Below are positions 6,776-23,432 of a DNA stretch of 64,000 nt, in pieces (position 1 is the stretch's first letter; each line of letters opens with the position of its first letter). The stretch is from positions 16,243 to 80,242 of the forward strand of contig JAEWQS010000189.1 of NCBI GenBank assembly GCA_023399095.1, read 5' to 3'. The DNA is from Bacillota bacterium. GTDB lineage: Bacteria > Bacillota > Clostridia > Christensenellales > SZUA-584. The notes below the pieces were generated by a model that had not been told where the DNA came from, did not search any database, and saw nothing but the letters and a program-made list of their open reading frames with translations. Made by a program: the position numbers and the translations under genes.

Positions 6776-6923
6776 CTGTGACTGACGATAAGGATGATAA
6801 ATAGAATTTGCGTAAGAGCAAAGTGACGGCTGAAGATCTCGGATGGTATGTGATTCCGGGTTGGGGCAGCTTAAAAATGATTTGATAGTAAATGAATTAT
6901 AAAACTAAGGTAAGGTGATTATC

Positions 6924-7430
6924 ATGCAAACTTTAAGAAAAATTGACCGAAAAGAATTTAAAGAGAATGCTTTGGTCCGCATCGGCGATGATTGGATGCT
7001 GGTAACGGCTGGTGACGAAGAGAATGGCTGCAATACACTGACTGCTTGCTGGGGTGGATTGGGTGATCTATGGCATCGGGATGCCGCGTTTATATTTATT
7101 CGCCCTACTCGTTATACATATGAATTCATAGAAAGCCAAGAAAGGTTTTCGTTGTCATTTTTCCCGCATGGATACCGCAAAGCTCTATCGCTGCTGGGCA
7201 CTAAATCGGGACGCGATGGTGACAAAATAAGCGAAGCGGGGCTCGAAGTTGAGTATTATGAAGGAGTTCCGGCGTTTAAGCAGGCCAATCTGGTTATTAT
7301 TTGCAGGAAGATGTACTATCTTGATTTTGTGCCGGAAAGAATTCCGCAGGATGTTATCGAAAGGTTTTACCCCGAAGGTGATTTCCATAGGTTTTATGCC
7401 GGAGAGATTGAATCAATATACACGACTTAA
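6924..7430 (+). CDS. Flavin-reductase-like (FMN-binding split-barrel) domain protein
   Basis: DWMLVTAG...NTLTACWGGLG...FIRPTRYTYEF...GTKSGRDGDK pattern of the flavin reductase-like family. ATG 6924 is preferred over GTG 6915. Confidence 0.65.
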   Translation: MQTLRKIDRKEFKENALVRIGDDWMLVTAGDEENGCNTLTACWGGLGDLWHRDAAFIFIRPTRYTYEFIESQERFSLSFFPHGYRKALSLLGTKSGRDGDKISEAGLEVEYYEGVPAFKQANLVIICRKMYYLDFVPERIPQDVIERFYPEGDFHRFYAGEIESIYTT

Positions 7431-7454
7431 GTTTTATGAAAGGGTCTTAATTAT

Positions 7455-8792
7455 ATGAATGTTAATTATTCAAAAGAGGTATATGGGAAAACAGGGGTAA
7501 ATTTTACGCTTAGATCTCTTGGCGCACAGGCAGTGCGCGGCGGCGAAGCTGACGTACAGCGGGTAATGAACAAGATGATCGCGTTGGGCGAGTACGAGGC
7601 GCTTAAAGGGCAGGTCAAAGCGATAGGCGTGACGGAGCGCTTTAAAGATGTCATAAAGACGTTTGAAGTTCCCGAGGGCGAGACGCCTGCGGGCTTTAGG
7701 ATAGAGAGCACTCTTGAACAGGACGGATTGCTGCTTGTGGATCTCGTAAGGGATATAAACTGCGACAAGAACGGCATGAAGCGGCCTACCAAGACGATAT
7801 TCTCTGCGGACTCTGCAAATCCGTACGAGGTGGCGCCGATATCGGCGCTGCTCGGAAACCTCACATGCAACCCGGGCATAGTGTACGACCTGTTCATAAA
7901 CAACCCTAAGGCGAATGTCGGAGGGAAGTTCAAGACCATCGAAGAGGTGATGACGGAGATTGGCAGGACACTCGGCCCCGGATGTGATATAAGCGTTGAG
8001 CTCAACAACCCGTTCGAAGAGGATTTTAATAAGATACTTGACGAGTGCGAGAAGTTTAAGAGTATCCTCACTGAATACAGGCTCGTGGTAAAGGTGCCGC
8101 ATATGGGGCCGGTCAACGGGGGCAACGTTGGTGAGCTCCTTACGGGAGACAAGAGGTTTTCCGCAAGGTATGATCAGCCCGCGACAGAAGACGCGTTCAG
8201 AAGCCATAACCTTGTTCTGAAACTGAGGGAACATGGCTACAGGATAAACTATACGCTGATGTTTGAACCTTATCAGACGGCGCTCGCGCTGCAGGCGAAG
8301 CCCACGTTCATCAACAGCTTCGTAAGACACAGGATGAAGCAGTCTGAACAGATGAAGAACCTGCTTGCGTTCTATGACATATCGAAGGACGCAAAGCACC
8401 TCGAGGATTTGAGAGCTGTGATGCTGGGCGCAGACCTGCTTGCGAAAAACGAGGGGAGCACAGACCTCTTGAAGGTAAAGCAGTTTGCAGAAGAACTGCT
8501 GAAATATCGTCAGACAGACGGGCACGAGGGAAGCGACGGACTCGACTCGGTAAGGCACAATCTTCGTCTGCTGAAGCAGAACAACCTGCCGGACACGCGG
8601 CTTATTATCTGCAGTATGGAAGGACCCCTAAACTACCCCGATATAGACAAGATGGCTGCTGAGCCCGAGTTTGCAGACGTCATAGACAGGCTCGTCATAA
8701 CGGCAGAGCCGGGGTACCTTGCGAGATTCACGTCTTCTAATCACGTGGTGTCGTATCAAAGAAGGTTCATGAATGCCGTTCAAGGCGCGTAA
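7455..8792 (+). CDS. Divergent long-form transaldolase / fructose-6-phosphate-aldolase superfamily protein
   Basis: 445 aa. FSADSANP (Asp), TCNPG (equivalent of TTNPS), ISVELN (Glu), VVKVPH (Schiff-base Lys context) and NYTLMFEPYQ...INSFVRH occur in the canonical order of Tal/FSA barrels. About 110 aa of N-terminal and about 130 aa of C-terminal extra sequence. Confidence 0.6.
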   Translation: MNVNYSKEVYGKTGVNFTLRSLGAQAVRGGEADVQRVMNKMIALGEYEALKGQVKAIGVTERFKDVIKTFEVPEGETPAGFRIESTLEQDGLLLVDLVRDINCDKNGMKRPTKTIFSADSANPYEVAPISALLGNLTCNPGIVYDLFINNPKANVGGKFKTIEEVMTEIGRTLGPGCDISVELNNPFEEDFNKILDECEKFKSILTEYRLVVKVPHMGPVNGGNVGELLTGDKRFSARYDQPATEDAFRSHNLVLKLREHGYRINYTLMFEPYQTALALQAKPTFINSFVRHRMKQSEQMKNLLAFYDISKDAKHLEDLRAVMLGADLLAKNEGSTDLLKVKQFAEELLKYRQTDGHEGSDGLDSVRHNLRLLKQNNLPDTRLIICSMEGPLNYPDIDKMAAEPEFADVIDRLVITAEPGYLARFTSSNHVVSYQRRFMNAVQGA

Positions 8793-8846
8793 TTGGATGC
8801 TCAAAAGCCTTAAGACTTATTGGGGTGTAAAATCAGGAGGTTAAGA

Positions 8847-9740
8847 ATGAAGAATGAGAAGCTGAGGGGAGTAATTGCTCCCATTACAACGCCATTTACA
8901 AAGGATGGAGAGGTCGATTACGCGGGGCTGAAAAGCAACATGGATTTCTATGCCAAGTCGGGTATTCAAGGCTATCTGGCGCTTGGGTCGAACGGTGAGA
9001 ACAAAAGCCTCATGAACGATGAGAAGGTAAAAGTACTCAAGACGATCATCGACAACAAGGCAAAAGAGCAGTTTGTGATGGCAGGATGCATATTCGAATC
9101 GACATTTGAGACGATAACGTACGCCAAAGAATACGAGAAGCTGGGTGCTGACTTTCTTACGCTGCTGCCTCCTTCGTATTTCAAAAAGCAGATGACGGAG
9201 CCAGTGCTTGTAAAATATTTTAACGATGTCGCAGATTCTGTGAAAACACCGTGTCTGATGTACAACGCGCCTCAGTTCTGCGGAGGCACCGAGCTTTCCG
9301 TAAACCTCGTCAAAGAATGCGCCAAGAACCCGAACATAGTGGGTATGAAAGACTCGTCGAAGGGCAATATCGAGAGCTTCCTGTTCGGGGTAAGGGATCA
9401 GATATGCGTGATGGCGGGCAGCGCTGATTTCTTCATGAACACGCTGTTTATGGGCGGCACGGGCGGTGTGGTATCGCTTGCCAACGTATTCCCTTCCATA
9501 GTTAACGAGCTGTACACGCTTATACTCGAAAAGAAATACGAAGAGGCGTTCAAGCTTAATGAGAAGGTGTTGCGCCTCAACAAGGGCGTATCGGGTTCGG
9601 GCGGTGTGGCCGCAGTCAAGTACGGTATGGATCTTGCAGGGCTTTGCGGAGGCAACGCGCGCCTGCCGCTTCTTCCGCTGACAGACGATATTAAGATAAA
9701 GATGGAGGCGTTTCTTAAAAAGGAAGGCCTGATCGCATGA
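8847..9740 (+). CDS. DapA/NAL-family class I (pyruvate-dependent) aldolase
   Basis: ATG 8847 behind aggagg (the ORF opens at 8820). GSNGE, YNAP and the Schiff-base Lys context VGMKDSS. The stop overlaps the next start. Confidence 0.8.
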   Translation: MKNEKLRGVIAPITTPFTKDGEVDYAGLKSNMDFYAKSGIQGYLALGSNGENKSLMNDEKVKVLKTIIDNKAKEQFVMAGCIFESTFETITYAKEYEKLGADFLTLLPPSYFKKQMTEPVLVKYFNDVADSVKTPCLMYNAPQFCGGTELSVNLVKECAKNPNIVGMKDSSKGNIESFLFGVRDQICVMAGSADFFMNTLFMGGTGGVVSLANVFPSIVNELYTLILEKKYEEAFKLNEKVLRLNKGVSGSGGVAAVKYGMDLAGLCGGNARLPLLPLTDDIKIKMEAFLKKEGLIA

Positions 9741-10693
9741 GGAAGATACTTTTAACGAAGAAACTGAAAGAAAACAGCGCGAAGCTGTTCGAAGGCATAC
9801 CGGATATAGATATGGTGACTATACCCGACGGAGAGCAGGTGCAGTTTGACCTCAACATAAGAGACGCCGAGGCTGTACTTTTAAGCACGGCGTACCAGAT
9901 GACAAAAGAGGTCATCGATAATGCGAAGAACTTAAAAGTCATAAGCCGGACGGGAGTCGGCGTCGACAACGTCGATATTAAGGCTGCTACCGAAAAAGGT
10001 ATATTGGTATTGAATACACCCGAGGCCAACTCGATATCGGTGGCCGAGCACACGCTGGCGCTGATAGTCGCGATATCCAAGCAGCTTGTTATGTACGACA
10101 GCGAGCTCAGAGCAGGTAACTTCAAGATACGCAGAACGAACAAAAGCGCCGACATCAACGGCAAGACGCTGGGCCTCGTAGGTTGCGGGAGGATAGGCAG
10201 GTTCACTGCCGAAAAGTGCAAGGCGGCGTTTGATATGCAGGTGATTGGGTACGATCCGTACATAAAGGAACTGCCGGGAATAACACTGTATCCGGATATA
10301 GAAGAAGTGTTCAAACGCGCGGACTACATATCACTGCACATACCTCTGACGAACGAGACGAGGGGCATCGTGGGAGAGAAGCTGCTCTCATTGATGAAGC
10401 CGACCGCGTACATCATCAACACGGCGAGGGGTGGGATTATAGACGAGGCGGACCTCGCGAAGGCGCTGAGAGAAAACAGCATAGCAGGAGCAGCGCTTGA
10501 TGTATTGGAATCCGAGCCGCCAAAAGAGGACAACCCGTTGCTGCCGCTTAAGAACGTGATACTGACGCCGCACAGCGCTGCGCTGACGAAGGAGTGCTCG
10601 GCAAGGGTGGCTTACGAGGCTGCGCTCGGGATATCCGAATACCTGAAAGGCGGTACACCTAGGTTTGTATTCAATAAGGAGCTTATACGATGA
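9737..10693 (+). CDS. D-isomer-specific 2-hydroxyacid dehydrogenase (PGDH/GyaR-like)
   Basis: GLVGCGRIGR NAD motif, INTARGG, and the LTPHSAA catalytic His context. ATGA overlaps at both ends. Confidence 0.85.
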   Translation: MRKILLTKKLKENSAKLFEGIPDIDMVTIPDGEQVQFDLNIRDAEAVLLSTAYQMTKEVIDNAKNLKVISRTGVGVDNVDIKAATEKGILVLNTPEANSISVAEHTLALIVAISKQLVMYDSELRAGNFKIRRTNKSADINGKTLGLVGCGRIGRFTAEKCKAAFDMQVIGYDPYIKELPGITLYPDIEEVFKRADYISLHIPLTNETRGIVGEKLLSLMKPTAYIINTARGGIIDEADLAKALRENSIAGAALDVLESEPPKEDNPLLPLKNVILTPHSAALTKECSARVAYEAALGISEYLKGGTPRFVFNKELIR

Positions 10694-11742
10694 CGAAAAA
10701 ATATGACATGATGGGTTTCGGTGAGGCGATGATACGTTTCAATGCCCCCGAGCATATGAGGCTCGAGCAGTCGAGCTCTCTGCAGCTTGCGATAGCTGCG
10801 GCAGAGCTTAATTGCTGCGTGAATATATCCAGACTGGGTCTTAAAACGGCGTATATAACCAAGCTCGTGGACACGTGGAGCGGAAAATATATCATCAACC
10901 ACGGCAGGGAACACGGCGTTGACATGTCCGGTGTGAAAACGGTGCCATTCGACGGCTGCGGAAAGACGAGAAACGGCTTTTGCTTCCTCGAGGTGGGCAT
11001 AGGCCCGAGGGCGAGCAGACAAATATACGACCGTGGTCACAGTGCGATAAGCAAGGTGGAGCAGGGCGATTTCGACTGGGACGAGATACTGAAGGACACA
11101 AGGTGGTTCCATACCACCGGCATAACGACGGCTATATCTCAAGGAGCTGCGGAGCAGGCAATAGCGTCGCTTAAAGCAGCGAAAAGACTGGGGCTTACGA
11201 CGAGCTTCGATCTTAACTTCCGCTCTACGCTGTGGACGAGCGAACAGGCGCAGGCTACCATGAAGAGTGTGATGCCGTATGTTGACGTCATCATAGGCAA
11301 CGAGGAAGATTTCGAGAAGATGCTCGGCATAAAGGCTGAGGGCACGGGCGAGCACTACGCGAAGATAGACCCTGAAAGCTACAGGGCTGTCGCTGAGAAG
11401 GTGGTCAAGGCATACCCGAACGTCGTCGCGGTTGGGACGACGTTGAGGGAAGTCAAGACTGCGCTGCTAAACGACTGGCGCACGGTCATGATGTACAAGG
11501 GCGGATATTACGTATCGCGCAAGTACGAGAACCTTGAGATAACGGATAGGACGGGTGGAGGAGACAGTTTCGCGTCGTCTATGATGTGGGGCATGCTCGA
11601 GGGCAAAGACCCGCAGTATATCGTTGATTTCTCGGCTGCATACTCCGCGCTGTGCCATACGTTCCTCGGAGACTGGAACTGGGCTTATAAGGAAGAAGCC
11701 GAGAGCGTTATGCGAGGCGAGAGCGCAAGGGTGAAAAGGTAA
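10690..11742 (+). CDS. PfkB-family sugar(-acid) kinase, 2-dehydro-3-deoxygluconokinase-like
   Basis: 350 aa with an N-terminal GEAMIRF and the PfkB signature DRTGGGDSFASS near the C-terminus. Confidence 0.75.
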   Translation: MTKKYDMMGFGEAMIRFNAPEHMRLEQSSSLQLAIAAAELNCCVNISRLGLKTAYITKLVDTWSGKYIINHGREHGVDMSGVKTVPFDGCGKTRNGFCFLEVGIGPRASRQIYDRGHSAISKVEQGDFDWDEILKDTRWFHTTGITTAISQGAAEQAIASLKAAKRLGLTTSFDLNFRSTLWTSEQAQATMKSVMPYVDVIIGNEEDFEKMLGIKAEGTGEHYAKIDPESYRAVAEKVVKAYPNVVAVGTTLREVKTALLNDWRTVMMYKGGYYVSRKYENLEITDRTGGGDSFASSMMWGMLEGKDPQYIVDFSAAYSALCHTFLGDWNWAYKEEAESVMRGESARVKR

Positions 11743-12227: not shown

Positions 12228-13214
12228 TTGGGAAATATGATGGAAAACGCGACGATAAGCGAGATAAATACAATAATACGCATAGCGAAGAAGTACTACG
12301 AGCTTAATTTGTCTCAAGAACAGATAGCTGCGGAGGAAGAGACGTCTATATCCACGGTATCGCGTATTATTAAAAAGGCTGTGACGCTTGGATATGTTAA
12401 GCATGAAATAATATATCCGGTAAGGTCTCTTGCGCTTCAGGAAGAGCTGCTGAAAAAGCACTTCGATATCGAGCACATTTTCATCACGCCGTGTTTTGTG
12501 AATGACGTCAGCATATGCATGACGGATACTTGCAAGATGGTTGCCGAAGATCTAAGCAAGATAGTATCAGACAATGATATCGTCAGCGTTTCGTGGGGCA
12601 GGACGATGGAGCACTTATCGTCACTTCTCGTGCCGCCCGCAACCACGAAAAAAGGGATAACAATCGTGCAGCTCAACGGCTCTATTGCCACCAGCGTATT
12701 GTCAACAAAGACTGCGGGTCTGCTCGAAAAGTTTACGCAGGCATATGCGGGTGTGGGGTATATAATAGCCGCGCCGGCTCTCGTAGACGATGAAAAGATT
12801 GCAAACGAAATAAAGCGGGATTCGCGTATCAAGCTGGTGCTTGAGCTGGCAAGGGAGGCGAATATCGCCGTTTTCAGCATAGGGCAGACGTCTGAGAATT
12901 CGGTGCTGGTCGAGCGCTCGACAGTCACAGAGGAAAATATTAAGGCACTGCGCGAAGCCGGCGCTGTCGGCGATATATGCACAAGGTTTTTTGACATAAG
13001 CGGAGATCTCGTAGACAATGGATATAACGCGAGGACGATCGGCATTGAGCTTCACGAGCTTAAGAAAAAGAAGCACAGGATAGGGATAGCGGTCGGGGCA
13101 GAGAAAGCCGACGCCATAATCGGAGCGCTAAGAGGCGGGTATATGACGACTTTGTATACGGATGAGATAACCGCCCTTAATATTTTAAAACGGTGCGAAG
13201 AGTATAATTTATAA
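12228..13214 (+). CDS. SorC/DeoR(Bsu)/CggR-family sugar-phosphate-sensing transcriptional regulator
   Basis: N-terminal HTH (LSQEQIAAEEETSISTVSRIIKKA) and a C-terminal sugar-binding domain (VSVSWGRT, VQLNGS). The start may be ATG 12237/12240 rather than TTG 12228. It lies 33 nt upstream of DERA-1. Confidence 0.8.
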   Translation: MGNMMENATISEINTIIRIAKKYYELNLSQEQIAAEEETSISTVSRIIKKAVTLGYVKHEIIYPVRSLALQEELLKKHFDIEHIFITPCFVNDVSICMTDTCKMVAEDLSKIVSDNDIVSVSWGRTMEHLSSLLVPPATTKKGITIVQLNGSIATSVLSTKTAGLLEKFTQAYAGVGYIIAAPALVDDEKIANEIKRDSRIKLVLELAREANIAVFSIGQTSENSVLVERSTVTEENIKALREAGAVGDICTRFFDISGDLVDNGYNARTIGIELHELKKKKHRIGIAVGAEKADAIIGALRGGYMTTLYTDEITALNILKRCEEYNL

Positions 13215-13247
13215 ACAAAATGATAAAACAATTCGGAGGGAGATTTT

Positions 13248-14078
13248 ATGGACATAAACGAACTGATCAAGAAAGTAACTGAAGAAGTCTGTGCGCAGCT
13301 TAATGGCAAGCCGCAAACGTCACCGGCGGCAGCAAACGAATTTGCGCCCGCATCGCTGGCTAAGTACGTTGACCACACTCTTTTAAAGCCTGAGGCATCC
13401 GAAGCGGATGTGAGAAAGGTCTGTGACGAGGCTAAGAAGTATAACTTCGCGAGCGTATGCGTAAACCCGAACCACATCAAATTTGTGGCAGAACAGCTTT
13501 CGGGCAGCGGAGTGGCACCCTGTGTCGTCATCGGCTTCCCGCTCGGCGCAACGACGCCTGAAGTTAAGGCGGAAGAGACTCAGGCCGTATTGCTGATGGG
13601 CGCAAAAGAAGTGGATATGGTCGTGAATATAGGCGCGATCAAATCGGACAACTGGCAGCTTGTTAAAAGGGACATCGAAGCTGTGGTGACAGCGGCAAAG
13701 GGCAGAGGGCTCGTCAAGGTCATCATTGAGACATGCCTGCTGACAGACGAGGAGAAGGTAAAGGTCTGCGCTATAGCGAAGATGGTGGGCGCGGATTTTG
13801 TAAAGACTTCTACCGGTTTCTCAAAGGGCGGAGCTACAAAAGAAGACGTCGCTCTGATGCGCCAGACTGTAGGCCCTCATATGGGAGTTAAGGCATCGGG
13901 AGGCGTTCGCGATTACGAAACTGCAGTTGCGATGATAAAGGCGGGCGCGACAAGGCTGGGAACAAGCTCGGGCGTGACTATCGTATCGGGCGGCGGCAAG
14001 GCTTGCGTAAACTGCGGACAGTGCGCATCGGGCAATTGCCCGGCTGGCAATGTAGCGGTAATTAAAGACACATACTAA
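13248..14078 (+). CDS. deoC: Deoxyribose-phosphate aldolase (DERA-1) with an N-terminal encapsulation-peptide-like helix and a C-terminal Cys-rich tail
   Basis: The core is canonical: [65 protein letters not shown]. The extra N-terminus is [18 protein letters not shown] plus a PA-rich linker. The extra C-terminus is [13 protein letters not shown]. Confidence 0.9.
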
Positions 14079-14103
14079 TTGAATGTAATTTAAGGAGTTT
14101 AAT

Positions 14104-15162
14104 ATGAGCAGCATGATGAAGGCAGTAAGGATGTACGCACCCAGGGATCTGAGGTTAGAGCAGGTTCCCGTTCCCGAGATCAAGGAGAACGAGGTACTGA
14201 TTAAGGTTATGGCCGTAGGCGTATGCGGATCGGACATTCCGCGCATCAACCAGTATGGCGCATATATAGCGCCCATAACTCCGGGTCATGAGTTTGCGGG
14301 CGAGATTGTCAAGACCGGCGCTGATGTTAAGAGCTATAAGGACGGCGATCGCGTTACGGTAGCGCCGCTGATGCCTTGCTTTAAGTGCGAGTATTGCCAG
14401 CAGGGGCACTTCTCGCTGTGCGTAGACTACAACTATTTCGGCTCGCGCTGCGACGGTGCTTTCGCCCAGTACCTTGCCGTTCCCGAGATCAATCTTGTCA
14501 AGATAGCCGACAACGTGACATATGAGGCTGCGGCGACGACAGATCCCCTTGCGAACGCGCTGCACTCTATCAAGCGCGGCGGTTTTAAAGCTGGCGACAA
14601 GGTATGCGTAGTGGGAACAGGACCTATCGGGCTTTATGCGCTTCAGTACATGAAAGCGAAGGGCGCTGCCAAGGTGGTCGCGGTAGACGTTTCGGAAGAA
14701 AAGCGCAAGGTCGCTCTCAATTGCGGAGCGGATGTGGCAATAGACGGAACTGCCGAGGACGTCGTCGAGCAGATAATTAAAGCAACGGACGGCGGAGCGG
14801 ATCTTTGTATAGACGCTTCCGGATTTCCTCCGGCACAGCACAACGCGATAATGGCGACCGGCAAGCACGGCAGGATGGTATTCCTCGGGATATCGCACAA
14901 GCCGTTGGAGCTGTCTGAAAAGTGTGTCGATCAGATAATGAGGTTTGAGAAGCAGGTAATAGGATCGTGGAATTCGTTCTCGAAGCCGTTCCCAGGATGG
15001 GAATGGACGCATGGAGTGGAAAGCCTCGCGGATGGAACGATAGACGCCGAGAAGATAATCACGCACAAGCTTCGTCTTGAAGACGTGCCGGGCATATTTG
15101 ACAAAATATATAAGAAGGAACTGTTCTTTAACAAGATACTGTTTCTGCCCTGGGCGGAATAA
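14104..15162 (+). CDS. Zn-dependent MDR dehydrogenase, galactitol-1-phosphate 5-dehydrogenase (GatD)-like
   Basis: GVCGSDIPRI...PITPGHEFAGE, PLMPCFKCEYCQQGHFSLC, YFGSRCDGAFAQY, VVGTGPIGL. The pattern matches sugar-alcohol(-phosphate) dehydrogenases. Confidence 0.75.
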   Translation: MSSMMKAVRMYAPRDLRLEQVPVPEIKENEVLIKVMAVGVCGSDIPRINQYGAYIAPITPGHEFAGEIVKTGADVKSYKDGDRVTVAPLMPCFKCEYCQQGHFSLCVDYNYFGSRCDGAFAQYLAVPEINLVKIADNVTYEAAATTDPLANALHSIKRGGFKAGDKVCVVGTGPIGLYALQYMKAKGAAKVVAVDVSEEKRKVALNCGADVAIDGTAEDVVEQIIKATDGGADLCIDASGFPPAQHNAIMATGKHGRMVFLGISHKPLELSEKCVDQIMRFEKQVIGSWNSFSKPFPGWEWTHGVESLADGTIDAEKIITHKLRLEDVPGIFDKIYKKELFFNKILFLPWAE

Positions 15163-15180
15163 ACGGACATAGGAGGGAAA

Positions 15181-16212
15181 ATGAAAGCATTCGTATATCA
15201 CGGAGAAAAGAACTTCTCTATCGATCAGATAGAAAAACCTGTGGCCGAGGCGGGTGAAGCGGTTGCAAAGGTTTTGTGTGCTTCGATATGCGGCACTGAC
15301 CTTCGCACATACAGGTTTGGCAGCGCCAAACTGAAGACGCCAGTAACTATAGGCCACGAAGGATGTTATGAGATTGTAGAAGTCGGCGAAGGCACGGGCT
15401 TAACCGTGGGAGAACGGTATACAATGGCGCCTGCCATAGGCTGCGGAGAGTGCAAAAACTGCAAAAGAGAGCGCACAAATATGTGCTTGAGCCTTGAGAC
15501 TATCGGCTTCCAGTTTGCGGGTACGTTCTCGGAATACATCAAAATACCTAAAAAGGCTATAGAGCGGGGGCATCTCATTAAGGTGCCGGAGGGCATATCG
15601 GTGGAGGCCGCGAGCGTCGCCGAACCGATCGCATGCGCTATAAACGCGCAAAGCTTCTTGAATATAGAGAGGGGCGACAACGTACTCATATACGGCGCGG
15701 GATACCTCGGATGCATACACGCAGAGCTGGCCTTTATGAAGGGCGCGGGCAAGGTCATTATAGGAGAGGTTTCCGAGAAGCGGCGCGTCAGCGCAGGCAG
15801 GCTCGTACCTAAGGCCCACATCGTCGATACGAAAGACGCGGGTTACGTGGAGCTTATAAAGAACATCGTAGGCACAGACGGAGTGGACGTTGTTATAACG
15901 GCATGCCCCGCAGGAATAACGCATAAGCAGGGCCTCGAGCTATTGAGTAACAACGGTCGTATAAGTCTGTTTGGAGGGCTTCCGGGCGACAACAATTTTC
16001 ATATCGACAGCAACCTTATTCACTATAAGGAACTCGGTGTGTTCGGGGCGCATGCTTCGACCGTCAAGCAGAACAAGGAAGCGCTCGAGCTGATAGCAAC
16101 TGGTAAGCTTGAAGTTGAAAAGTACATCACCAAGTTTGCTTTCGATGACATAGTAAAGGCGTTTGAGAGCCTTATAAGCGAGGACGCCGAGAAGGCGGTC
16201 GTCATTCCGTAA
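15181..16212 (+). CDS. Zn-dependent MDR dehydrogenase (sorbitol/threonine dehydrogenase-like)
   Basis: ICGTDLR, IGHEG, the structural-Zn Cys cluster GCGECKNCKRERTNMC, and GAGYLG. Confidence 0.8.
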   Translation: MKAFVYHGEKNFSIDQIEKPVAEAGEAVAKVLCASICGTDLRTYRFGSAKLKTPVTIGHEGCYEIVEVGEGTGLTVGERYTMAPAIGCGECKNCKRERTNMCLSLETIGFQFAGTFSEYIKIPKKAIERGHLIKVPEGISVEAASVAEPIACAINAQSFLNIERGDNVLIYGAGYLGCIHAELAFMKGAGKVIIGEVSEKRRVSAGRLVPKAHIVDTKDAGYVELIKNIVGTDGVDVVITACPAGITHKQGLELLSNNGRISLFGGLPGDNNFHIDSNLIHYKELGVFGAHASTVKQNKEALELIATGKLEVEKYITKFAFDDIVKAFESLISEDAEKAVVIP

Positions 16213-16267
16213 TACGGAATGCAAGAGACGTAAATACGAATACAACAAATTTTAAAGGAGAATTAAA

Positions 16268-16540
16268 ATGGACAAACAGGCACTCGGAATGGTTGAAACA
16301 AAGGGTCTTATCGGCGCAATAGAAGCGGCTGATGCAATGGTAAAAGCGGCGAACGTGACGCTTATTGGCAAAGAGCAGATAGGCTCGGGGCTCGTAACGG
16401 TTATGGTGAGAGGCGATGTTGGAGCGGTAAAGGCGGCTGTTGATGCCGGTGCGGCTGCTGCAAAGCGCGTGGGAGAATTGGTATCTGTACACGTTATACC
16501 CCGCCCGCATCAGGATGTTGAAGGCATACTGCCCAGATAA
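16268..16540 (+). CDS. BMC-H hexameric shell protein (PduA/EutM type), copy 1
   Basis: [26 protein letters not shown]...[18 protein letters not shown]...VHVIPRPH is a single Pfam00936-type domain. Confidence 0.95.
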
Positions 16541-16557
16541 CTGTTTAAAACGGAGAG

Positions 16558-17199
16558 TTGAAGTTGAACGAGCAAACGCTTATACGTACGATCACATTAG
16601 CAACAGTAAAGCAATTCGCGCTGGCGGGGAAAGGTTTTTTCCCCGCAGCGGTATCGGCGCGCCATGTGCACCTTTGCGCGGCGGACATTGAGACGCTTTT
16701 CGGCAAAGGACATAAGCTTGTTAAACTGCGGGACCTTATGCAGCCCGGACAATTTGCGTGCGAAGAGCAGGTGACTCTGGTCGGTAAAAAAGGGCGGATC
16801 GAGAAAATTCGCGTTCTGGGGCCGGCAAGACGCGAGACGCAGGTAGAGATATCGGTAACGGACTGCTATAAGGCAGGCATCGAGCCTGTGGTGCGCATGT
16901 CGGGTGATCTTGACAACACTCCCGGAGGCAAGCTTATAGGCCCGGCGGGAGAAGTCGATCTATCAAAAGGCGTCATCGTATCCGCAAGGCATCTGCATGC
17001 GACGGCGGAGCAGGCAGCGTGGTATGGACTTAAAAACGGTGATATTATAGCCGTAAAGAAAACGGGCGTCAGGGAAACGGTGTTTGGCAATATCGTTGTG
17101 CGCACAGGGAAGGAACACGACCTTGAGCTGCATTTTGATCCCGATGAAGCAAACGCGGCAGGACTAAAATCGGGCGATATGCTGGAGCTGGTGAAATGA
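16558..17199 (+). CDS. pduL: Phosphate acyltransferase PduL
   Basis: Two PduL repeats (AVSARHVHL and VSARHLHAT). The N-terminal amphipathic segment NEQTLIRTITLATVKQFA looks like an encapsulation peptide. TTG 16564 (6 nt after ggagag) may be the real start. Confidence 0.85.
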   Translation: MKLNEQTLIRTITLATVKQFALAGKGFFPAAVSARHVHLCAADIETLFGKGHKLVKLRDLMQPGQFACEEQVTLVGKKGRIEKIRVLGPARRETQVEISVTDCYKAGIEPVVRMSGDLDNTPGGKLIGPAGEVDLSKGVIVSARHLHATAEQAAWYGLKNGDIIAVKKTGVRETVFGNIVVRTGKEHDLELHFDPDEANAAGLKSGDMLELVK

Positions 17200-17209
17200 G
17201 AGGCGGAAA

Positions 17210-17863
17210 ATGAACTATAGCGCGCAAGACATACAGGAACTAATACGGCGCGTCACAGAAGAGATATTAAGCGGACAGACGCAGATGCAAAGCGGCAGTT
17301 TGGCCGTGCTCTGCGGCATCGTTTTCGACCCGCAGGGCGTGAGAGAGTTCTTAGCGGATAAAAACGTCACATATGCGCTGCCAGACGATATGCCGCCTCT
17401 TGTTGAGGGCTGCAAGGCGCTGAAGCTTGAGGCGGACAAACGCGAGATACTTGAAGGGCTGGCAGATTTTGAAGAGGTCGTGCTCGTCACGCCGCCGCTG
17501 TCGCTTCTGGCCGCAATTGCGGCAGCCGACGATACGTCTTTGACTGCGTCACTTATCATCAGGCCTCTGCTCTGGGGCAAGGCTGTGACCGTGCTGCTCG
17601 ACTTTGAAACGCCCAAGTACATGCGGGGCACAGCGCTTGCGGTTATAGCGGACAACATAAATGCGCTCGAAAAGATGGGTGTCATTGTGAAAACGCTGGC
17701 GCGCAAAAACATCAAGAAACAGGGCAAAGCGCTTGTAACCGAACAGGATGTCAAGGACGCGTACAAGGACGGCAGCATGAAGGTGAAGATGGAGCCGGGA
17801 GCAATAGTCACGCAGCTCGCGCAGGATACAGCAAAAGAGTGCGGCGTGAGCATCGAATATTAG
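17210..17863 (+). CDS. BMC-associated protein of unknown function with an encapsulation-peptide-like N-terminus (possibly PduM-like)
   Basis: 217 aa. The N-terminus is MNYSAQDIQELIRRVTEEIL followed by a Q/S/G linker. No catalytic motif recognised. It sits between pduL and a BMC-P gene. Confidence 0.55.
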   Translation: MNYSAQDIQELIRRVTEEILSGQTQMQSGSLAVLCGIVFDPQGVREFLADKNVTYALPDDMPPLVEGCKALKLEADKREILEGLADFEEVVLVTPPLSLLAAIAAADDTSLTASLIIRPLLWGKAVTVLLDFETPKYMRGTALAVIADNINALEKMGVIVKTLARKNIKKQGKALVTEQDVKDAYKDGSMKVKMEPGAIVTQLAQDTAKECGVSIEY

Positions 17864-17873
17864 GAGATATGAT

Positions 17874-18194
17874 ATGCAGATAGCAAGAGTAAAGGGAAGC
17901 GTTGTCAGCACTAACAAAGCCGAAAAGCTGCATGGCTTAAAGCTGCTGATCGTCGTTCCCATAGAACTCGCTACATTTGAAGAAAAAGGGTCACCGATAG
18001 TCGCTATTGACACCGTGGGCGCGGGAGCGGGAGAGGTCGTCATGCTGTGCGGCGGAAGCTCGTCGCGGCAGACGGTGCTGACTGAGAATAAACCGTCGGA
18101 TATGGCTATCGTCGCCATAATTGACTCTATAGAGATAGAAGGAAAAACAGTATTCCGCAAGTTTGAAGAATCGGATCGGGGTGAGGACAAATGA
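17874..18194 (+). CDS. BMC-P pentameric vertex protein (EutN/CcmL/PduN type), copy 1
   Basis: MQIARVKGSVVSTNK...LKLLIV...AIDTVGAGAGEVV pattern of Pfam03319. 106 aa with an acidic C-terminal tail. Confidence 0.9.
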   Translation: MQIARVKGSVVSTNKAEKLHGLKLLIVVPIELATFEEKGSPIVAIDTVGAGAGEVVMLCGGSSSRQTVLTENKPSDMAIVAIIDSIEIEGKTVFRKFEESDRGEDK

Positions 18195-19603
18195 GTTTAA
18201 CAGAGCAACAAGTTCGCCAGATCGTTGAAGATACAATGAAAAATATAGCAGGCGCTCCGGTAACGGCCGCGGCAGCAGGCGGGAGCTGGCTCTGCGACAC
18301 CATGGAAGAAGCGATCGCTTCAGCCAAAGCTGCTCAACAGCAGCTCATAGCGATGCCGCTCGATAAACGCGGCAAGCTGATAGACGCTATGCGCCGCGCA
18401 GCGATGGAAAACGTACAGTATCTGTCGGAGCTCGCGCATAACGAGACAGGTTACGGAAAAACGGAGCACAAGGTTTTAAAGAATAAACTGGCGATAGAAA
18501 AAACGCCGGGTATCGAAGACCTGACCGCGGACGCCATGTCGGGGGACTATGGACTCACGCTGGTTGAGCGCGCGCCTTTCGGAGTTATCGGCGCGATAAC
18601 GCCGTCTACCAACCCGACATCTACGGTAATAAATAATTCGATAAGCATGATAGCGGCGGGTAACGCCGTGGTGTATAACCCGCACCCGGCAGCCAAGAAA
18701 AGCTCTACTGAAACAATGCGGATACTTAATGAAGCAATCGTTTCGGCAGGCGGGCCTGCCACGCTTATATGTACCGTAAAACAGCCGACATTGGAAAGCG
18801 GCAAGGCGCTGATGGAGCATAAGGACATACCGTTGCTCGCCATAACGGGAGGCGAAGCCGTCGTGCATGTGGCAATGCACACTGGCAAAAAAGTCATAGC
18901 GGCAGGGCCGGGAAATCCGCCTGTCATTGTGGACGACACCGCAATAATAAAGCAGGCAGCAAAGGACATAGTGGACGGCGCAAGCTTTGACAACAACGTT
19001 CTATGCATAGCGGAAAAAGAGGTGTTCGTATTCGGAAGCGTGGCCGATATGCTCATGAACGAGATGCAAAAGCACGGCGCAATTAAAGTATCGGGCACGG
19101 AGATCGACAAAATAGTCAAAACCGTTTTTGTGCAGAAGGACGGCAAATATGTCGTTAACAGGAAATACGTTGGCAAGGATGCGACGAAGATACTTTCGGA
19201 CAGCGGCGTTTCCTACACCGGGAACCCGAGGCTCGTTTTTGCGGACGTAGATGAAAACCACCCGTTCGTAACGGTGGAGATGCTGATGCCGGTGCTCGGT
19301 ATCGTGCGCGTTCAAAACGACGAGATCGTCACCGCGATACAGATGGCCATAAAAGCGGAGAACGGCTGCAAGCACACGGCTATGATGCATTCTCAGAACG
19401 TCAGCCATCTTTCGATGGCGGCCAAAGCGATGAATACGACCATATTCGTTAAAAACGCGCCCTCTTACGCAGGGCTCGGTTTCGGCGGAGAAGGTTTCAC
19501 GACATTGACGATAGCGACTCCTACGGGAGAGGGACTGACGAGCGCCAGAACGTTTACGCGTGTGCGCAGATGCGTTCTGTACGGGAACTTCAGGATCGTA
19601 TAA
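18191..19603 (+). CDS. CoA-acylating aldehyde dehydrogenase (PduP/EutE type) with an N-terminal encapsulation peptide
   Basis: MSLTEQQVRQIVEDTMKNI plus an Ala/Gly linker. The catalytic Cys context is GASFDNNVLCIAEKE, and the C-terminus is PduP-like. The start overlaps the BMC-P stop. Confidence 0.9.
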   Translation: MSLTEQQVRQIVEDTMKNIAGAPVTAAAAGGSWLCDTMEEAIASAKAAQQQLIAMPLDKRGKLIDAMRRAAMENVQYLSELAHNETGYGKTEHKVLKNKLAIEKTPGIEDLTADAMSGDYGLTLVERAPFGVIGAITPSTNPTSTVINNSISMIAAGNAVVYNPHPAAKKSSTETMRILNEAIVSAGGPATLICTVKQPTLESGKALMEHKDIPLLAITGGEAVVHVAMHTGKKVIAAGPGNPPVIVDDTAIIKQAAKDIVDGASFDNNVLCIAEKEVFVFGSVADMLMNEMQKHGAIKVSGTEIDKIVKTVFVQKDGKYVVNRKYVGKDATKILSDSGVSYTGNPRLVFADVDENHPFVTVEMLMPVLGIVRVQNDEIVTAIQMAIKAENGCKHTAMMHSQNVSHLSMAAKAMNTTIFVKNAPSYAGLGFGGEGFTTLTIATPTGEGLTSARTFTRVRRCVLYGNFRIV

Positions 19604-20923
19604 ATGGATAAGCAGCAGATTTTAAACAAAATCAAAGAGGCGGGAGTGATAGGCGCTGGCGGCGCTGGTTTTCCCACACATATCAAACTGTCGTGCAGCG
19701 CCGACGTTGTTATAGCAAACGGCGCTGAGTGTGAACCGCTGCTGCGCACCGACCGGCTGCTCATGGAAACATACCCTGAGAAGGTCGTTGCGGGGATCAA
19801 GGCTGCTATGTACGTAACGGGCGCGAAGCGGGGCGTTATTGCGCTCAAGAAAAAGTATGTAAAAGCCGTAGAAGCAATGAGAGGCGCGCTGGATTCCAGT
19901 ATGGAACTGTATCTTATGGACAGTTTCTATCCGGCGGGTGATGAGCAGCAGATCGTGTATGAGGTGACGGGTAAGGTCGTTCCCACGGGAGGGCTTCCCA
20001 TAGATGTGGGGGCCATGGTACAGAATGTCGCCACGCTGATAGCCATCGCGGAAGCGCTGCAGGAAACGCCCGTTATAGAAAAGTACGTGACAGTCGCGGG
20101 CGAGGTATCAAACCCTATGGTGTACAAAGCGCCCATAGGAATGCCGCTTACGAAATTGATTGCGGCGGCGGGAGGCTCGAAAGACGATTCGGAATACAGC
20201 GTAATCATCGGCGGCCCTATGATGGGGCGCGTATCGGAGGATATTACAGCTGAAGTCGTGGAGAAAACGACAGGCGGCATAATCGTGATGCCAAAAGGCC
20301 ACACGCTGATACGCCAGAAGACCCGCGACCTTGTGCAGGATATAAGGCTCGCCAAATCGGTTTGCTGCCAGTGCAACTACTGCACACAACTCTGCCCGCG
20401 CAACGCTCTGGGGCTCAAGGTGGAGCCCCACAAGATAATGCGCGCACTTGCTCTTAACGCCGACAACTTCGGCGAGGTGAACGGCATATTCTCATGCAGC
20501 AACTGCGGCGTATGTACTCAGTACGCGTGCAACTTCCAGCTAGCACCCTCAAGACTTATGACCAGGGTCAAGCAGGAGCTCGCAAAAGCGGGAGTGAAGC
20601 CTGAGAAGAAAGTGGCGTTCAGCGTGGCGGATAACATGGAAAGCATAAAGGTGCCAGTGTCAAGGCTGATGATACGGCTTGGTATCGTACCATACGACAG
20701 GGATCTGCAATTAAAAGACGAAACGGTGGATACAGATTATGTCCGGCTGCCGCTGAAGATGCATATAGGAGCGCCTGCCGTCCCAATAGTAAAAACAGGC
20801 GATAAAGCCATTGCGGGGCAAATGATAGCCTCGGTGGACAACGGCGTGGGTGCAAACTTGCACGCAAGCATAACGGGAATTGCGATGGTAACGGACAAGT
20901 ATATTGAGATAAGGAAGCAGTAA
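19604..20923 (+). CDS. PduS/RnfC-like NAD(P)H-flavin Fe-S oxidoreductase
   Basis: GAGGAGFPTHIKL nucleotide/FMN region and two ferredoxin-type motifs (CCQCNYCTQLCP, CSNCGVCTQYAC). No rnfDGEAB neighbours. Confidence 0.8.
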   Translation: MDKQQILNKIKEAGVIGAGGAGFPTHIKLSCSADVVIANGAECEPLLRTDRLLMETYPEKVVAGIKAAMYVTGAKRGVIALKKKYVKAVEAMRGALDSSMELYLMDSFYPAGDEQQIVYEVTGKVVPTGGLPIDVGAMVQNVATLIAIAEALQETPVIEKYVTVAGEVSNPMVYKAPIGMPLTKLIAAAGGSKDDSEYSVIIGGPMMGRVSEDITAEVVEKTTGGIIVMPKGHTLIRQKTRDLVQDIRLAKSVCCQCNYCTQLCPRNALGLKVEPHKIMRALALNADNFGEVNGIFSCSNCGVCTQYACNFQLAPSRLMTRVKQELAKAGVKPEKKVAFSVADNMESIKVPVSRLMIRLGIVPYDRDLQLKDETVDTDYVRLPLKMHIGAPAVPIVKTGDKAIAGQMIASVDNGVGANLHASITGIAMVTDKYIEIRKQ

Positions 20924-20925
20924 AT

Positions 20926-21474
20926 ATGACACACGCAGTGGGAATGGTCGAAACAAACTGCATAGCAAAAGGCATTGAGGCCGCAGACGCGATGCTCAAG
21001 GCGGCTGATGTGACCCTTCTGTCGGCGCAGACAGCCTGCGCGGGCAAATACGTCGTAATCGTATCGGGCGACGTGGCGGCAGCAAAAGCCTCGGTGGAAG
21101 CGGGGGCGGCCGGAGCAGAGGAGACGCTCGTAGACAGCATGGTGATACCCAATATTGACGAGCAGGTCTTGAAAGCTGTATCGGCATGCGGCGAGCCTCA
21201 TAACTTTGAGGCGCTCGGGATTATCGAGACGTTCTCGCTCGTGTCGGCACTGCTGTGCGCGGACGTTGCGGTAAAGGCGGCGGACATTGAGCTGATAGAG
21301 GTAAGGCTGGGCAGAGGCCTGGGCGGCAAGTCGTTCCTGACGCTGACGGGAGACGTTGCGGCGGTGCGCCACGCGATAGAAGCGGCGAAATCGGACGAAG
21401 GGGTTAAGGGCATGATAACGCGCACTGTGGTTATACCCTCTCCGCATCCTGACCTTAAGAGGTCAGTCTATTAA
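20926..21474 (+). CDS. BMC-T tandem-domain shell protein, PduT-like
   Basis: Two Pfam00936-type repeats in 182 aa. Cys38 sits in the TACAGKY context, the same position as the PduT pore [4Fe-4S] ligand. Confidence 0.85.
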   Translation: MTHAVGMVETNCIAKGIEAADAMLKAADVTLLSAQTACAGKYVVIVSGDVAAAKASVEAGAAGAEETLVDSMVIPNIDEQVLKAVSACGEPHNFEALGIIETFSLVSALLCADVAVKAADIELIEVRLGRGLGGKSFLTLTGDVAAVRHAIEAAKSDEGVKGMITRTVVIPSPHPDLKRSVY

Positions 21475-21549
21475 GTGAGAAGATGGGCATAAGCTCTTCT
21501 GATAAAGCCTAAAAAAATATAGTTTTTATATGACAAAAGGAGCAAAGCA

Positions 21550-21855
21550 ATGGAAAAACAAGCATTGGGAATGGTAGAGACAAAAGGTCTTGTCGGCGCT
21601 ATAGAAGCGGCTGACGCGATGGTAAAAGCGGCTAACGTCACACTAATCGGTAAAGAGCAGATAGGATCGGGACTCGTGACCGTCATGGTAAGAGGCGATG
21701 TGGGTGCTGTCAAGGCGTCTGTTGATTCGGGCGCGGCAGCGGCAAAGCGCGTGGGCGAGCTTGTTTCGGTACACGTTATTCCGCGTCCGCACGACGATGT
21801 AGAAGGCATACTGCCTGCAGTGAAACCCGCAAAAGCGGCGGCGAAGAAGGAATAG
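21550..21855 (+). CDS. BMC-H shell protein, copy 2 (Lys/Ala-rich C-terminal tail)
   Basis: Almost identical in protein sequence to copy 1 over about 85 aa. Extra tail [12 protein letters not shown]. Confidence 0.95.
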
Positions 21856-21856
21856 C

Positions 21857-22120
21857 ATGTACACCGGGAAGGTCATAGGCTCGGTCGTCAGCACGGCAAA
21901 GGACCCGAGCCTTAAAGGCGTCAAGCTGCTCGTGGTGCAAAAGTACGAAAACGGCAAACCTGCAGGGCTGATAGTGTCGGCGGACGGGACTCGTCAGGCG
22001 GGGCCGGGGGATTTTGTGTACCTGATTGGCAGCAAGGAAGCATGCCTGCCGTTTCCGGAATGCAGGTTGATACCTTTGGACTCATCGATCATAGGGTTTA
22101 TTGACCGTATCAACGAATAA
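21857..22120 (+). CDS. BMC-P vertex protein, copy 2
   Basis: [27 protein letters not shown]...GPGDFV is an EutN/CcmL-type fold signature. Confidence 0.85.
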
Positions 22121-22140
22121 TCAAAAGGGGGATTTGTAAA

Positions 22141-22416
22141 ATGGAAAAACAAGCACTCGGAATGGTTGAGACAAAAGGGCTCGTGGGCGCGATTGAGGCG
22201 GCTGATGCGATGGTTAAAGCGGCGAATGTCACGCTCGTAGGCAAAGAGAAGATAGGCAGCGGACTCGTGACCGTGATGGTGCGCGGAGATGTTGGTGCTG
22301 TTAAAGCGGCGGTGGATTCAGGCGCGGCGGCTGCAAAGCGCGTTGGTGAGCTCGTATCGGTACATGTGATACCGCGTCCGCACGACGACGTCGAAGCCAT
22401 ACTGCCAGGAAAATAG
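22141..22416 (+). CDS. BMC-H shell protein, copy 3
   Basis: Same domain as copies 1 and 2. The DNA differs mostly at synonymous positions. Confidence 0.95.
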
Positions 22417-22417
22417 T

Positions 22418-22687
22418 ATGCTGCTTGCAAAGGTAGTCGGCAATGTGGTGTCGACGATAAAGCCCGAGTCGCATCACGGGCGCAAGCTCATGATGGTTGA
22501 ACTTATTGGGCTTGATAATAAACCATACGGCACGCGGCAGATAGTCATAGACGCTGCCAACGCCGGAATTGGCGATACCGTGCTTGTCAATGTGGACGGC
22601 GGCGCGTCGCTTATGATACTTGACGACAAGAAAGCTCTCGTCGATATGACGATATGCGGCGTTGTCGACCATTTTGACGTAGAATGA
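22418..22687 (+). CDS. BMC-P vertex protein, copy 3
   Basis: MLLAKVVGNVVSTIKPESHHGRKLMMV...ANAGIGDTVLV is EutN/CcmL-type. Confidence 0.85.
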   Translation: MLLAKVVGNVVSTIKPESHHGRKLMMVELIGLDNKPYGTRQIVIDAANAGIGDTVLVNVDGGASLMILDDKKALVDMTICGVVDHFDVE

Positions 22688-22703
22688 AAGGCGGGGGACT
22701 GCA

Positions 22704-23432
22704 TTGGATATACAGGATATCGTGGCAAAGGTCACGAAAGAAATATTAGCACGGATGGGAGAGAGCGTTCCCGTAGAATCGGGAACGGATATCGCTCATA
22801 CTATAGAACACAGCCTTTTAAACCCAGACATGACGAAGGATCAGATAATAAAGGGGTGCAAAGATGCAAAGGCATTTCGCATGGCCAATATATGCGTATC
22901 GCCCTATTATGTAGCGCTCGCCGCGGAGTATCTGCGCGGCAGCGGAGTTAAGGTTTGTGCTCCTGTGGCGTTTCCGCATGGCGCATCTTCTACGGCGGCA
23001 AAGATAGTAGAAGCAAGGGAAGCCATCAAAAACGGTGCGGAAGAGCTTGACGTTTCTATAAACATTCTCGCTATAAAGAGCGGAGAAATAAAGGACGCGC
23101 TCTATGACTTGTGCGAGGTAGTGAACGTAGCCAAGGGCAAAGCTCTCGTTAAAGCAATCTATGAGCAGGGACTTTACACCGACGATGAGAAGGTTGCTGC
23201 ACTTAATGTCGCCAAACAGTCGGGCGCTGATTTCATTAAGATATCGAACGCTCTTACAGGCAAGAAGGCGTTGGCTGAGGACGTACATTTCGTACGCAGC
23301 ATAGTGGGAAACACAATAGGCATAAAAATAGACGGCGGAATCGCCACCGCGGCGAAGGTTCGCGAGCTGATGGCGGCGGGCGCTCAGCGTTTTGGGTGCA
23401 GCAAGTCGGTCGAGATAGTACAGGGACAGTAA
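22704..23432 (+). CDS. Divergent DeoC/DERA-family aldolase paralog (DERA-2) with an encapsulation-peptide-like N-terminus
   Basis: TTG start behind aaaggcggggga. N-terminus MDIQDIVAKVTKEILARM plus linker. Both Lys contexts are kept (FIKIS, GIKIDGG), but KTSTGF becomes KISNAL and VKASGGVR becomes IKIDGGIA. Confidence 0.75.
   Translation: MDIQDIVAKVTKEILARMGESVPVESGTDIAHTIEHSLLNPDMTKDQIIKGCKDAKAFRMANICVSPYYVALAAEYLRGSGVKVCAPVAFPHGASSTAAKIVEAREAIKNGAEELDVSINILAIKSGEIKDALYDLCEVVNVAKGKALVKAIYEQGLYTDDEKVAALNVAKQSGADFIKISNALTGKKALAEDVHFVRSIVGNTIGIKIDGGIATAAKVRELMAAGAQRFGCSKSVEIVQGQ

Follow-up and report, generated by a model that had tools for sequence, protein, structure and literature searches.

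In a 64,000-nucleotide stretch of contig JAEWQS010000189.1 from a Christensenellales bacterium (hereafter the window), we analysed DERA-1, a deoxyribose-phosphate aldolase (DERA) that is encoded in a bacterial microcompartment operon and carries a C-terminal tail with four cysteines. We propose, with middling confidence, that this tail is a single Fer4 cluster-binding repeat, i.e. a semidoxin-like half-ferredoxin, on a DERA that is targeted into a microcompartment resembling the sugar-phosphate-utilisation (SPU) type. Iron-sulfur (Fe-S) binding by the tail as such appears fairly probable. DERA is the standard example of a class I aldolase that works without a cofactor, and it is also the signature enzyme of a microcompartment type that ranks among the most widespread. 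While SPU DERAs and ferredoxin repeats are each known, the addition of a single, putative ferredoxin repeat to a DERA of this type appears to be new.

DERA-1 is a genuine, orthodox DeoC/DERA, as an earlier note on this DNA, made from the sequence without database searches, had said of its barrel. The curated deoC model TIGR00126 aligned to residues 37-246 with 279.6 bits (cut-off 117.3) and the Pfam DeoC family PF01791 to residues 38-243 with 71.1 bits (cut-off 23.8), and the best solved relative was 8qps (E = 2.9e-88). Residues D123, K186 and K215, which by motif (including GVKASGG) we take to be D102, K167 and K201 of the E. coli enzyme, were invariant in a full-length alignment of 47 sequences. 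The open reading frame has its own ribosome-binding site (GGAGGGAG) and ends in a TAA stop, after which an AAGGAG and the ATG of the next gene follow, with 25 bases between the two genes. All 17 solved DERA structures aligned to approximately residues 33-250 of DERA-1 only, and a counterpart of the Cys4 tail was found in none of the 17. Since the deoC model stops at residue 246 and the solved structures at about residue 250, the tail lies outside the aldolase fold. Translation of positions 13989-14078 gave 29 residues and a stop, in agreement with the tail length reported earlier; the tail string printed in that note was one Gly short.

The tail cysteines (C253, C256, C259 and C264, followed by P265) are spaced C-x2-C-x2-C-x4-C-P, one residue over the classic motif, as was recognized before. 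The homologue survey that the earlier note had recommended revealed the tail in orthologues. Among the 120 best homologues (64-98% identity) in a database of 5.8 billion proteins, 114 had a CxxCxxC(x1-5)CP tail, with the classic CxxCxxCxxxCP spacing in 104, x4 in 6 (those closest to the window), x5 in 3 and x1 in 1. Additionally, a genome scan with one genome per species returned 79 loci, of which 47 were tail-bearing, including a clade with x6 spacing (CINCGACKNGGTSCP), and a search seeded with a distant member added further tail-bearing clades. This resulted in 179 distinct tail-bearing sequences overall, in which the third and fourth cysteines are separated by three residues in 155, four in 12, five in 5, six in 6 and one in a single case. 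Gly follows Cys2 in all 179 tails, and Ile or Val follows Cys1 in 143. In the alignment of 47 sequences, C253, C256, G257, C259, C264, P265 and Y276 were invariant, and the N-terminal linker had no conserved column.

Both TGC and TGT were found at each of the tail Cys positions, and four different Pro codons are in use. This synonymous variation indicates that selection acts on the amino acids and not on the DNA, and the tail is under purifying selection. We therefore reject read-through or faulty annotation of one sequence as the origin of the tail, and assign this explanation practically no probability given 179 distinct homologues and 47 species-level genomes with selection at the amino-acid level. 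A barrel-only distance tree placed the x4 group inside the x3 clade, adjoining locus L005, so that the additional residue of the window tail is a derived one-residue insertion. The classic x3 spacing is the family norm, and x4 a lineage-specific insertion in the loop before the fourth Cys. A separate clade of DERAs with encapsulation peptides, found in PduS-containing loci (L067, positions 9983-10789, and P0271-P0284), has a short conserved C-x2-C-x2-C-x2-C tail, for example DHCNNCSTCTKCKDNY and GGDDCKNCATCTNCRKS, without the Pro, without the following strand and often without the Tyr. This short Cys4 tail may have arisen by reduction or been acquired independently.

A profile built from 45 tails and searched against the sequences of solved structures (E up to 1) matched 207 sequences, and all 60 of the 60 matches listed were Fe-S proteins. 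The top matches comprised FwdF and MvhB, two polyferredoxins whose E of ~1e-18 is a sum across many repeats, as well as clostridial ferredoxins (1fca, E = 2.8e-9), PsaC and NuoI/TYKY. The profile alignments continued past the CP into a strand (CPTGnvtItK against CPVDAATVTK and CPQDAITITR). When family members were scanned singly, 39-41 of 47 matched Fer4-type Pfam families (E up to 1; best 1e-5). The tail signature can be written as C-[IV]-x-C-G-x-C-x3(4)-C-P followed by a strand-like G-N-V-x-[IV], and by these comparisons the tail is ferredoxin-like beyond its Cys spacing, which bears out the ferredoxin-like appendage described earlier. The x4 spacing of the window tail is compatible with cluster binding, because the second cluster motif of PduS/MNdh also has it: this motif is CxxCxxCx4C in 33 of 34 related loci, and MNdh was shown to carry two [4Fe-4S] clusters (PMC11626177). 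In the PduS/MNdh homologue of the window, this second motif (CSNCGVCTQYAC) has x4 spacing and no Pro. An orphan partner motif was not found in the other operon proteins, in which the only motifs were the two belonging to PduS itself. A ferredoxin-like assembly would therefore use either the four cysteines of one tail or those of two tails.

The position of the terminal Tyr adds to this picture. Canonical DERAs mostly end in a Tyr that lies 20-21 residues past the RxG motif, and a terminal Tyr was present in 90 of the best 150 of 16,090 DERA representatives. In the mobile tail of E. coli DERA, the terminal Tyr (Tyr259) has a part in catalysis (Schulte et al. 2018, reviewed in PMC8403123). In tail-bearing DERAs, Cys1 lies 17-25 residues (mostly 19-20) past RxG, and 177 of the 179 sequences end in a Tyr, 10-12 residues past the CP. 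In DERA-1, the Cys4 module intervenes and Tyr276 accordingly stands 41 residues past RxG, where 20-21 would be usual. Because Cys1 is located at about the place of the canonical Tyr, the module seems to have been appended to a canonical-length tail of varying composition and length. The linker ahead of Cys1 varies in length and the distance from CP to Tyr is nearly fixed; a variable tether combined with a fixed module-to-Tyr distance suggests that Tyr276 works together with the Cys4 module. With its flexible C-terminal tail ending in Tyr, DERA-1 may resemble E. coli DERA in part, but in DERA-1 a Cys4 module of about 23 residues separates the canonical tail position from the Tyr. We rejected the idea that Tyr276 is the catalytic Tyr in its usual place, since approximately this place is taken by Cys1, with the new Tyr some 23 residues beyond it. 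Tyr276 may still reach the active site.

At the other end of the protein, AlphaFold2 predicted a helix at residues 3-19 of DERA-1, followed by a low-confidence linker (per-residue confidence, pLDDT, <50 at residues 23-28). A similar N-terminal motif also opens DERA-2, a 217-aa protein, the aldehyde dehydrogenase (AldDH) and PduL of the same operon, and we read the predicted helix as an encapsulation peptide. In the genome scan, such a peptide was present in 47 of 47 tail-bearing genes and absent from 24 cytosolic DERA relatives. These 24 relatives without the peptide (ordinary DeoC of Clostridium, Lysinibacillus and others) had neither the tail nor microcompartment genes within 10 kb in any case. 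According to Dwyer et al. (PMC11585597), all SPU DERAs have an N-terminal encapsulation peptide. This peptide, the x3 spacing as the family norm and the nearly invariant terminal Tyr had all been missed in the earlier note.

Further, the tail is associated with microcompartment genes. Of the 47 tail-bearing loci, 43 had shell genes in their flanks, compared with 3 of 32 tail-less loci (Fisher P = 5e-14, without phylogenetic correction). Three of the four shell-less tail-bearing loci have short or one-sided flanks (L007, L008 and L017), and the fourth (L029) has about 5 kb on each side. Where tail-bearing loci had full 10-kb flanks, PduS adjoining a BMC-T with a pore Cys was encoded in 21 of 24, and the other three were satellite modules. 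In these satellites (L009, L010 and L022; approximately positions 10001-11120), a tail-bearing DERA is followed by a single BMC-H, and no other compartment genes were found within 10 kb; L010 encodes two tail-bearing DERA paralogues, and L009 and L022 come from one metagenome-assembled genome (MAG). Strict dependence on PduS was rejected, since at L046 and P0344 a DERA with a plain tail is encoded alongside PduS and BMC-T. At P0328, both PduS and the tail are missing and an Fe-ADH is present instead. The link between tail and PduS is therefore one-directional: tail-bearing main loci have PduS, but not the reverse.

Three loci nested among the tail-bearing Lachnospiraceae lack microcompartment genes in their neighbourhood; in two of them (L059 and L060) the tail is truncated, and in the third (L043) it is interrupted. 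The tail thus decays once the compartment is gone. In L043 (Faecalicatena contorta ET52, positions 10756-10850), the Cys1 codon is a TGA (HK*VGCGACQKKCPSGRVDIVASNNY) and the rest of the tail is intact, which amounts to a single TGT-to-TGA change relative to close relatives, with no microcompartment genes within 10 kb. Selenocysteine at this TGA is disfavoured by the one-base change, the lack of compartment genes and the unremarkable downstream fold, and we read the TGA as tail decay.

The tail is clade-restricted. A full-length profile was searched against 1.84 billion representatives clustered at 50% identity, in which the tail-bearing clade is collapsed under tail-less representatives; there, the tail was found in none of the 150 best of 16,090 DERA-like proteins, SPU6-like enzymes with a long N-terminal extension included. 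The hosts of tail-bearing DERAs are anaerobes belonging to the Christensenellales, Oscillospiraceae, Lachnospiraceae and Synergistales. One locus (L003, JBLNCA010000037.1) comes from a MAG labelled Burkholderiales and is 83-98% identical at the protein level to Bacillota loci; this label is probably a binning error.

The operon of the window (Table 1) encodes, in this order, a SorC-type regulator, DERA-1, two Zn-dependent medium-chain dehydrogenases, BMC-H, PduL, the 217-aa protein, BMC-P, an acylating AldDH, PduS/MNdh, BMC-T, BMC-H, BMC-P, BMC-H, BMC-P and DERA-2. Pfam and TIGR02526 matches established that the operon contains a PduS-like flavoprotein and a PduT-like BMC-T with Cys38, both of which had been named in the earlier note. 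The pore motif of this BMC-T is C-A-G-K, compared with the C-P-G/S-K reported to be universal beside MNdh, and both forms occur among relatives. The two dehydrogenases (14104-15162 and 15181-16212) look cytosolic, lack an encapsulation peptide and lie between DERA-1 and the first shell gene. The 217-aa protein (17210-17863, + strand) has an encapsulation-peptide-like start (DIQELIRRVTEEIL), keeps its position in related loci and has no Pfam match; TIGR02536, a hypothetical 'eut' protein family, matched it only weakly (32 bits against a cut-off of 152.6). DERA-2 (22704-23432, + strand), a second DeoC paralogue of 242 aa that is 37% identical to DERA-1 (TIGR00126, 196 bits), has an encapsulation-peptide-like N terminus, ends in VEIVQGQ with neither the terminal Tyr nor the Cys tail, and carries KISNAL in place of the KTSTGF of DERA. 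It accompanies the tail-bearing DERA in many related loci; its possible roles are those of a partner subunit or of an enzyme for another substrate. Upstream of the operon, a run of genes resembling sugar-acid catabolism (6071-11742, + strand) encodes a short-chain dehydrogenase, a flavin-reductase-like protein, a 445-aa protein with a weak transaldolase/FSA match, a DHDPS-family aldolase, a D-2-hydroxyacid dehydrogenase and a KDG-kinase-like PfkB kinase. These genes may supply the real substrate of the compartment.

Table 1. Location of DERA-1, its parts and neighbouring microcompartment genes in the window
Feature	Position	Strand	Basis
SorC/DeoR-type sugar-binding regulator, upstream of DERA-1	12228..13214	+	PF04198; conserved in close relatives
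DERA-1, deoxyribose-phosphate aldolase with N- and C-terminal additions, 276 aa	13248..14078	+	Open reading frame with ribosome-binding site; PF01791; TIGR00126
N-terminal extension of DERA-1, residues 1-35: amphipathic helix 3-19 (putative encapsulation peptide) and unconserved linker	13248..13352	+	AlphaFold2 model; shared motif
DeoC TIM barrel, residues 37-246	13356..13985	+	TIGR00126; invariant D123, K186, K215
C-terminal tail, residues 248-276 and stop: flexible linker, putative Cys4 ferredoxin-type repeat, 11-residue end piece	13989..14078	+	
Cys4 motif C253-V-N-C256-G257-Q-C259-A-S-G-N-C264-P265 (CxxCGxCx4CP)	14004..14042	+	Invariant columns; profile matches Fer4 repeats
Terminal Tyr276 codon	14073..14075	+	Last residue in 177/179 tail-bearing sequences
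Rest of the microcompartment operon, BMC-H through DERA-2	16268..23432	+	
PduS/MNdh-like NADH dehydrogenase with FMN and 2x[4Fe-4S]	19604..20923	+	Pfam Complex1_51K, SLBB, Fer4_17, RnfC_N
PduT-like BMC-T shell protein, pore Cys38 (TACAGKY)	20926..21474	+	Two BMC domains; TIGR02526 eut_PduT

SPU microcompartments with DERA have been described (Axen 2014, PMC4207490; Sutter 2021, PMC8217296; Dwyer, Sutter and Kerfeld 2024, PMC11585597), and DERA-1 resembles their signature enzyme in being of the DeoC type with an N-terminal encapsulation peptide and in its company of AldDH, PduL, PduS, BMC-H, BMC-T and three BMC-P genes. [quoted passage not shown] Unlike the SPU loci, the window locus has a second DERA paralogue and lacks RPI: no PF02502 match was found among the open reading frames of 12228-23432. 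RPI is otherwise a hallmark of most SPU subtypes, and it is also absent from SPU5 and part of SPU4 (PMC11585597). The SPU6-like DERAs among the database representatives differ from DERA-1 in having no Cys tail. In those parts of the SPU, MNdh and archaeal-compartment literature that were available to us, no mention turned up of a DERA whose tail is Cys-rich or of Fe-S type; the source annotations give plain deoxyribose-phosphate aldolase, with precomputed Pfam Fer4 matches on record for a few.

The tail shares C-[IV]-x-C-G-x-C-x3-C-P and a short strand with the repeats of ferredoxins and polyferredoxins (PF00037; 1fca, FwdF 5t5i, MvhB 9sw6). These proteins have two or more repeats, whereas the tail is one repeat, fused to an aldolase and variable in its C3-C4 spacing. 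The semidoxins are another parallel. Designed semidoxins (about 30 aa with one motif) homodimerise, bind two [4Fe-4S] clusters and are oxygen sensitive in vivo, and the natural semidoxin peptide PD1 is a redox-active mixture of single-cluster monomers and dimers (PMC12648291). The DERA tail, with 29 residues and one motif, is similar in size and motif number and likewise belongs to anaerobes; semidoxins are free-standing peptides, whereas the putative cluster-binding module of DERA-1 is tethered to an enzyme.

Two further systems combine redox cofactors with a microcompartment. In Hodarchaeales microcompartments, which also contain MNdh and a pore-Cys BMC-T, DERA is fused to a flavoprotein domain (preprint, PMC12747264). 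That fusion resembles DERA-1 in joining an encapsulated DERA to a redox-cofactor domain and is an independent parallel; it involves a flavoprotein instead of a Fer4 repeat, another lineage and probably the other fusion end; the roles of both additions are putative. MNdh itself, which together with BMC-T exports electrons (PMC11626177), is an Fe-S protein of the same compartment whose second cluster motif is x4 like the window tail. MNdh and BMC-T are specialised for redox work and their electron path has been demonstrated, whereas the tail is attached to an enzyme whose chemistry is not redox.

In the mechanism that we propose, the four cysteines would bind a [4Fe-4S] cluster, either one per tail or with two tails of the DERA oligomer paired around two clusters; by analogy, semidoxins and PD1 provide a precedent for both modes (PMC12648291). 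Such an oxygen- or redox-sensitive cluster would fix the conformation of the C-terminal Tyr tail, the oligomeric state or both. The acetaldehyde output in the compartment would then hinge on anaerobiosis and on the redox poise set by PduS/MNdh and BMC-T. This coupling of acetaldehyde production to anaerobiosis or redox poise is speculative, and we give it a low probability. A more specific version, which we hold to be doubtful, would have two tails form a semidoxin-like bridge under anaerobic, reducing conditions; its redox state, set via PduS/MNdh-BMC-T, would gate the Tyr and throttle the aldehyde step when NAD+ regeneration stalls.

Several observations weigh against the tail being a Fer4 repeat with such a function. 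The window's own x4 tail scored 10.4 bits against Fer4_6, below the gathering cut-off of 25, and each DERA-1 has a single Cys4 motif, although the ferredoxin fold needs two. In the AlphaFold2 model the barrel was predicted with confidence, but the tail reached no more than pLDDT 50-65 and contained a single short helix of 4 residues (258-261); this model, of a monomer without cofactor, speaks neither for nor against cluster binding. The loose C3-C4 spacing (1-6 residues) and the short sister tail are less constrained than a true ferredoxin fold and would be compatible with any Cys4 metal site. DERA chemistry has no need of a redox cofactor, and DERAs with a plain tail occur in the PduS-containing L046 and P0344 loci. 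Additionally, the terminal Tyr stands about 23 residues away from the canonical position, and a catalytic role for it is assumed. Finally, metal binding by the tail is predicted from sequence.

The main rival to Fe-S binding is that the four cysteines bind one structural Zn(II), forming a zinc knuckle that stiffens the tail for stability or protein contacts in the packed lumen and has no redox role. The CxxCxxC...C site of medium-chain alcohol dehydrogenases binds structural zinc, and the two dehydrogenases of the operon (ADH1 and ADH2) carry it as CxxCxxCx7C. The variation between Cys3 and Cys4 and the short CxxCxxCxxC sister tail would fit such a generic Cys4 site as well, and AlphaFold2 builds no ferredoxin-like fold for the tail. 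The DERA tails differ from the Zn(Cys)4 site of these dehydrogenases, however, in having x1-x6 in place of x7 and a Fer4-type Gly/Pro context, with the Gly after Cys2 in every tail, Pro after Cys4, Ile or Val after Cys1 and the strand after the CP, and Fer4 Pfam matches are found among family members. Restriction to strict anaerobes and to the microcompartment context would also not be required of a plain zinc knuckle, which we regard as unlikely. More improbable still, in our view, is that an Fe-S tail serves only as an electron relay or docking site to the PduS/MNdh-BMC-T export chain without regulating DERA. The encoding of PduS beside a pore-Cys BMC-T in every tail-bearing main locus with enough flank, the export of electrons by the MNdh-BMC-T pair (PMC11626177), the Hodarchaeales DERA-flavoprotein fusion and the P0328 locus, in which PduS and tail are both missing and Fe-ADH is used, would all agree with such a relay. 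DERA, however, neither produces nor consumes electrons and MNdh already has a complete FMN-2x[4Fe-4S] path to BMC-T; moreover, tail-less DERAs exist in PduS-containing loci, and the satellite modules of DERA and BMC-H have the tail with no PduS nearby.

A metal-free tail could switch reversibly between thiol and disulfide forms, or sacrifice its thiols to trap reactive aldehydes such as acetaldehyde-derived crotonaldehyde. DERAs are inactivated when acetaldehyde-derived products react with an active-site Cys (reviewed in PMC8403123), and the lumen concentrates acetaldehyde, but free thiols leave the invariant Gly and Pro, the fixed x2/x2 spacing and the match to Fer4 profiles unexplained, which makes this explanation very unlikely. 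We give scarcely more credence, indeed slightly less, to the tail as a second encapsulation or shell-docking peptide. This proposal can draw on the fact that the extension is found on encapsulated DERAs only and that some microcompartment enzymes have C-terminal encapsulation peptides (PMC11585597). The shell-docking role considered in the earlier note nevertheless lost ground, because an amphipathic N-terminal encapsulation peptide is already present. In addition, the tail shows no amphipathic helix of the kind seen in C-terminal encapsulation peptides (about 15-20 residues), AlphaFold2 predicting the 4-residue helix alone, and its conserved residues are Cys, Gly and Pro and not a hydrophobic face.

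If the tail is a Fer4-type cluster-binding repeat, it would for the first time hint at the sensing of oxygen or redox state by the entry enzyme of such an organelle, and would bear on how aldehyde production is matched to cofactor recycling inside a closed shell. Should the doubtful two-tail bridge prove true, the signature enzyme of a microcompartment would carry its own redox feedback, and the evolutionary half-ferredoxin stage would be represented in living cells. Free-standing half-ferredoxins are reported to be rare, and the tail would be a natural ferredoxin module of one repeat, abundant with its 179 or more sequence variants, and as such material for studies of ferredoxin evolution and design. 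The four-Cys tail together with the N-terminal encapsulation peptide may also serve as a marker of compartment-targeted DERAs, which are now annotated as plain deoxyribose-phosphate aldolase.

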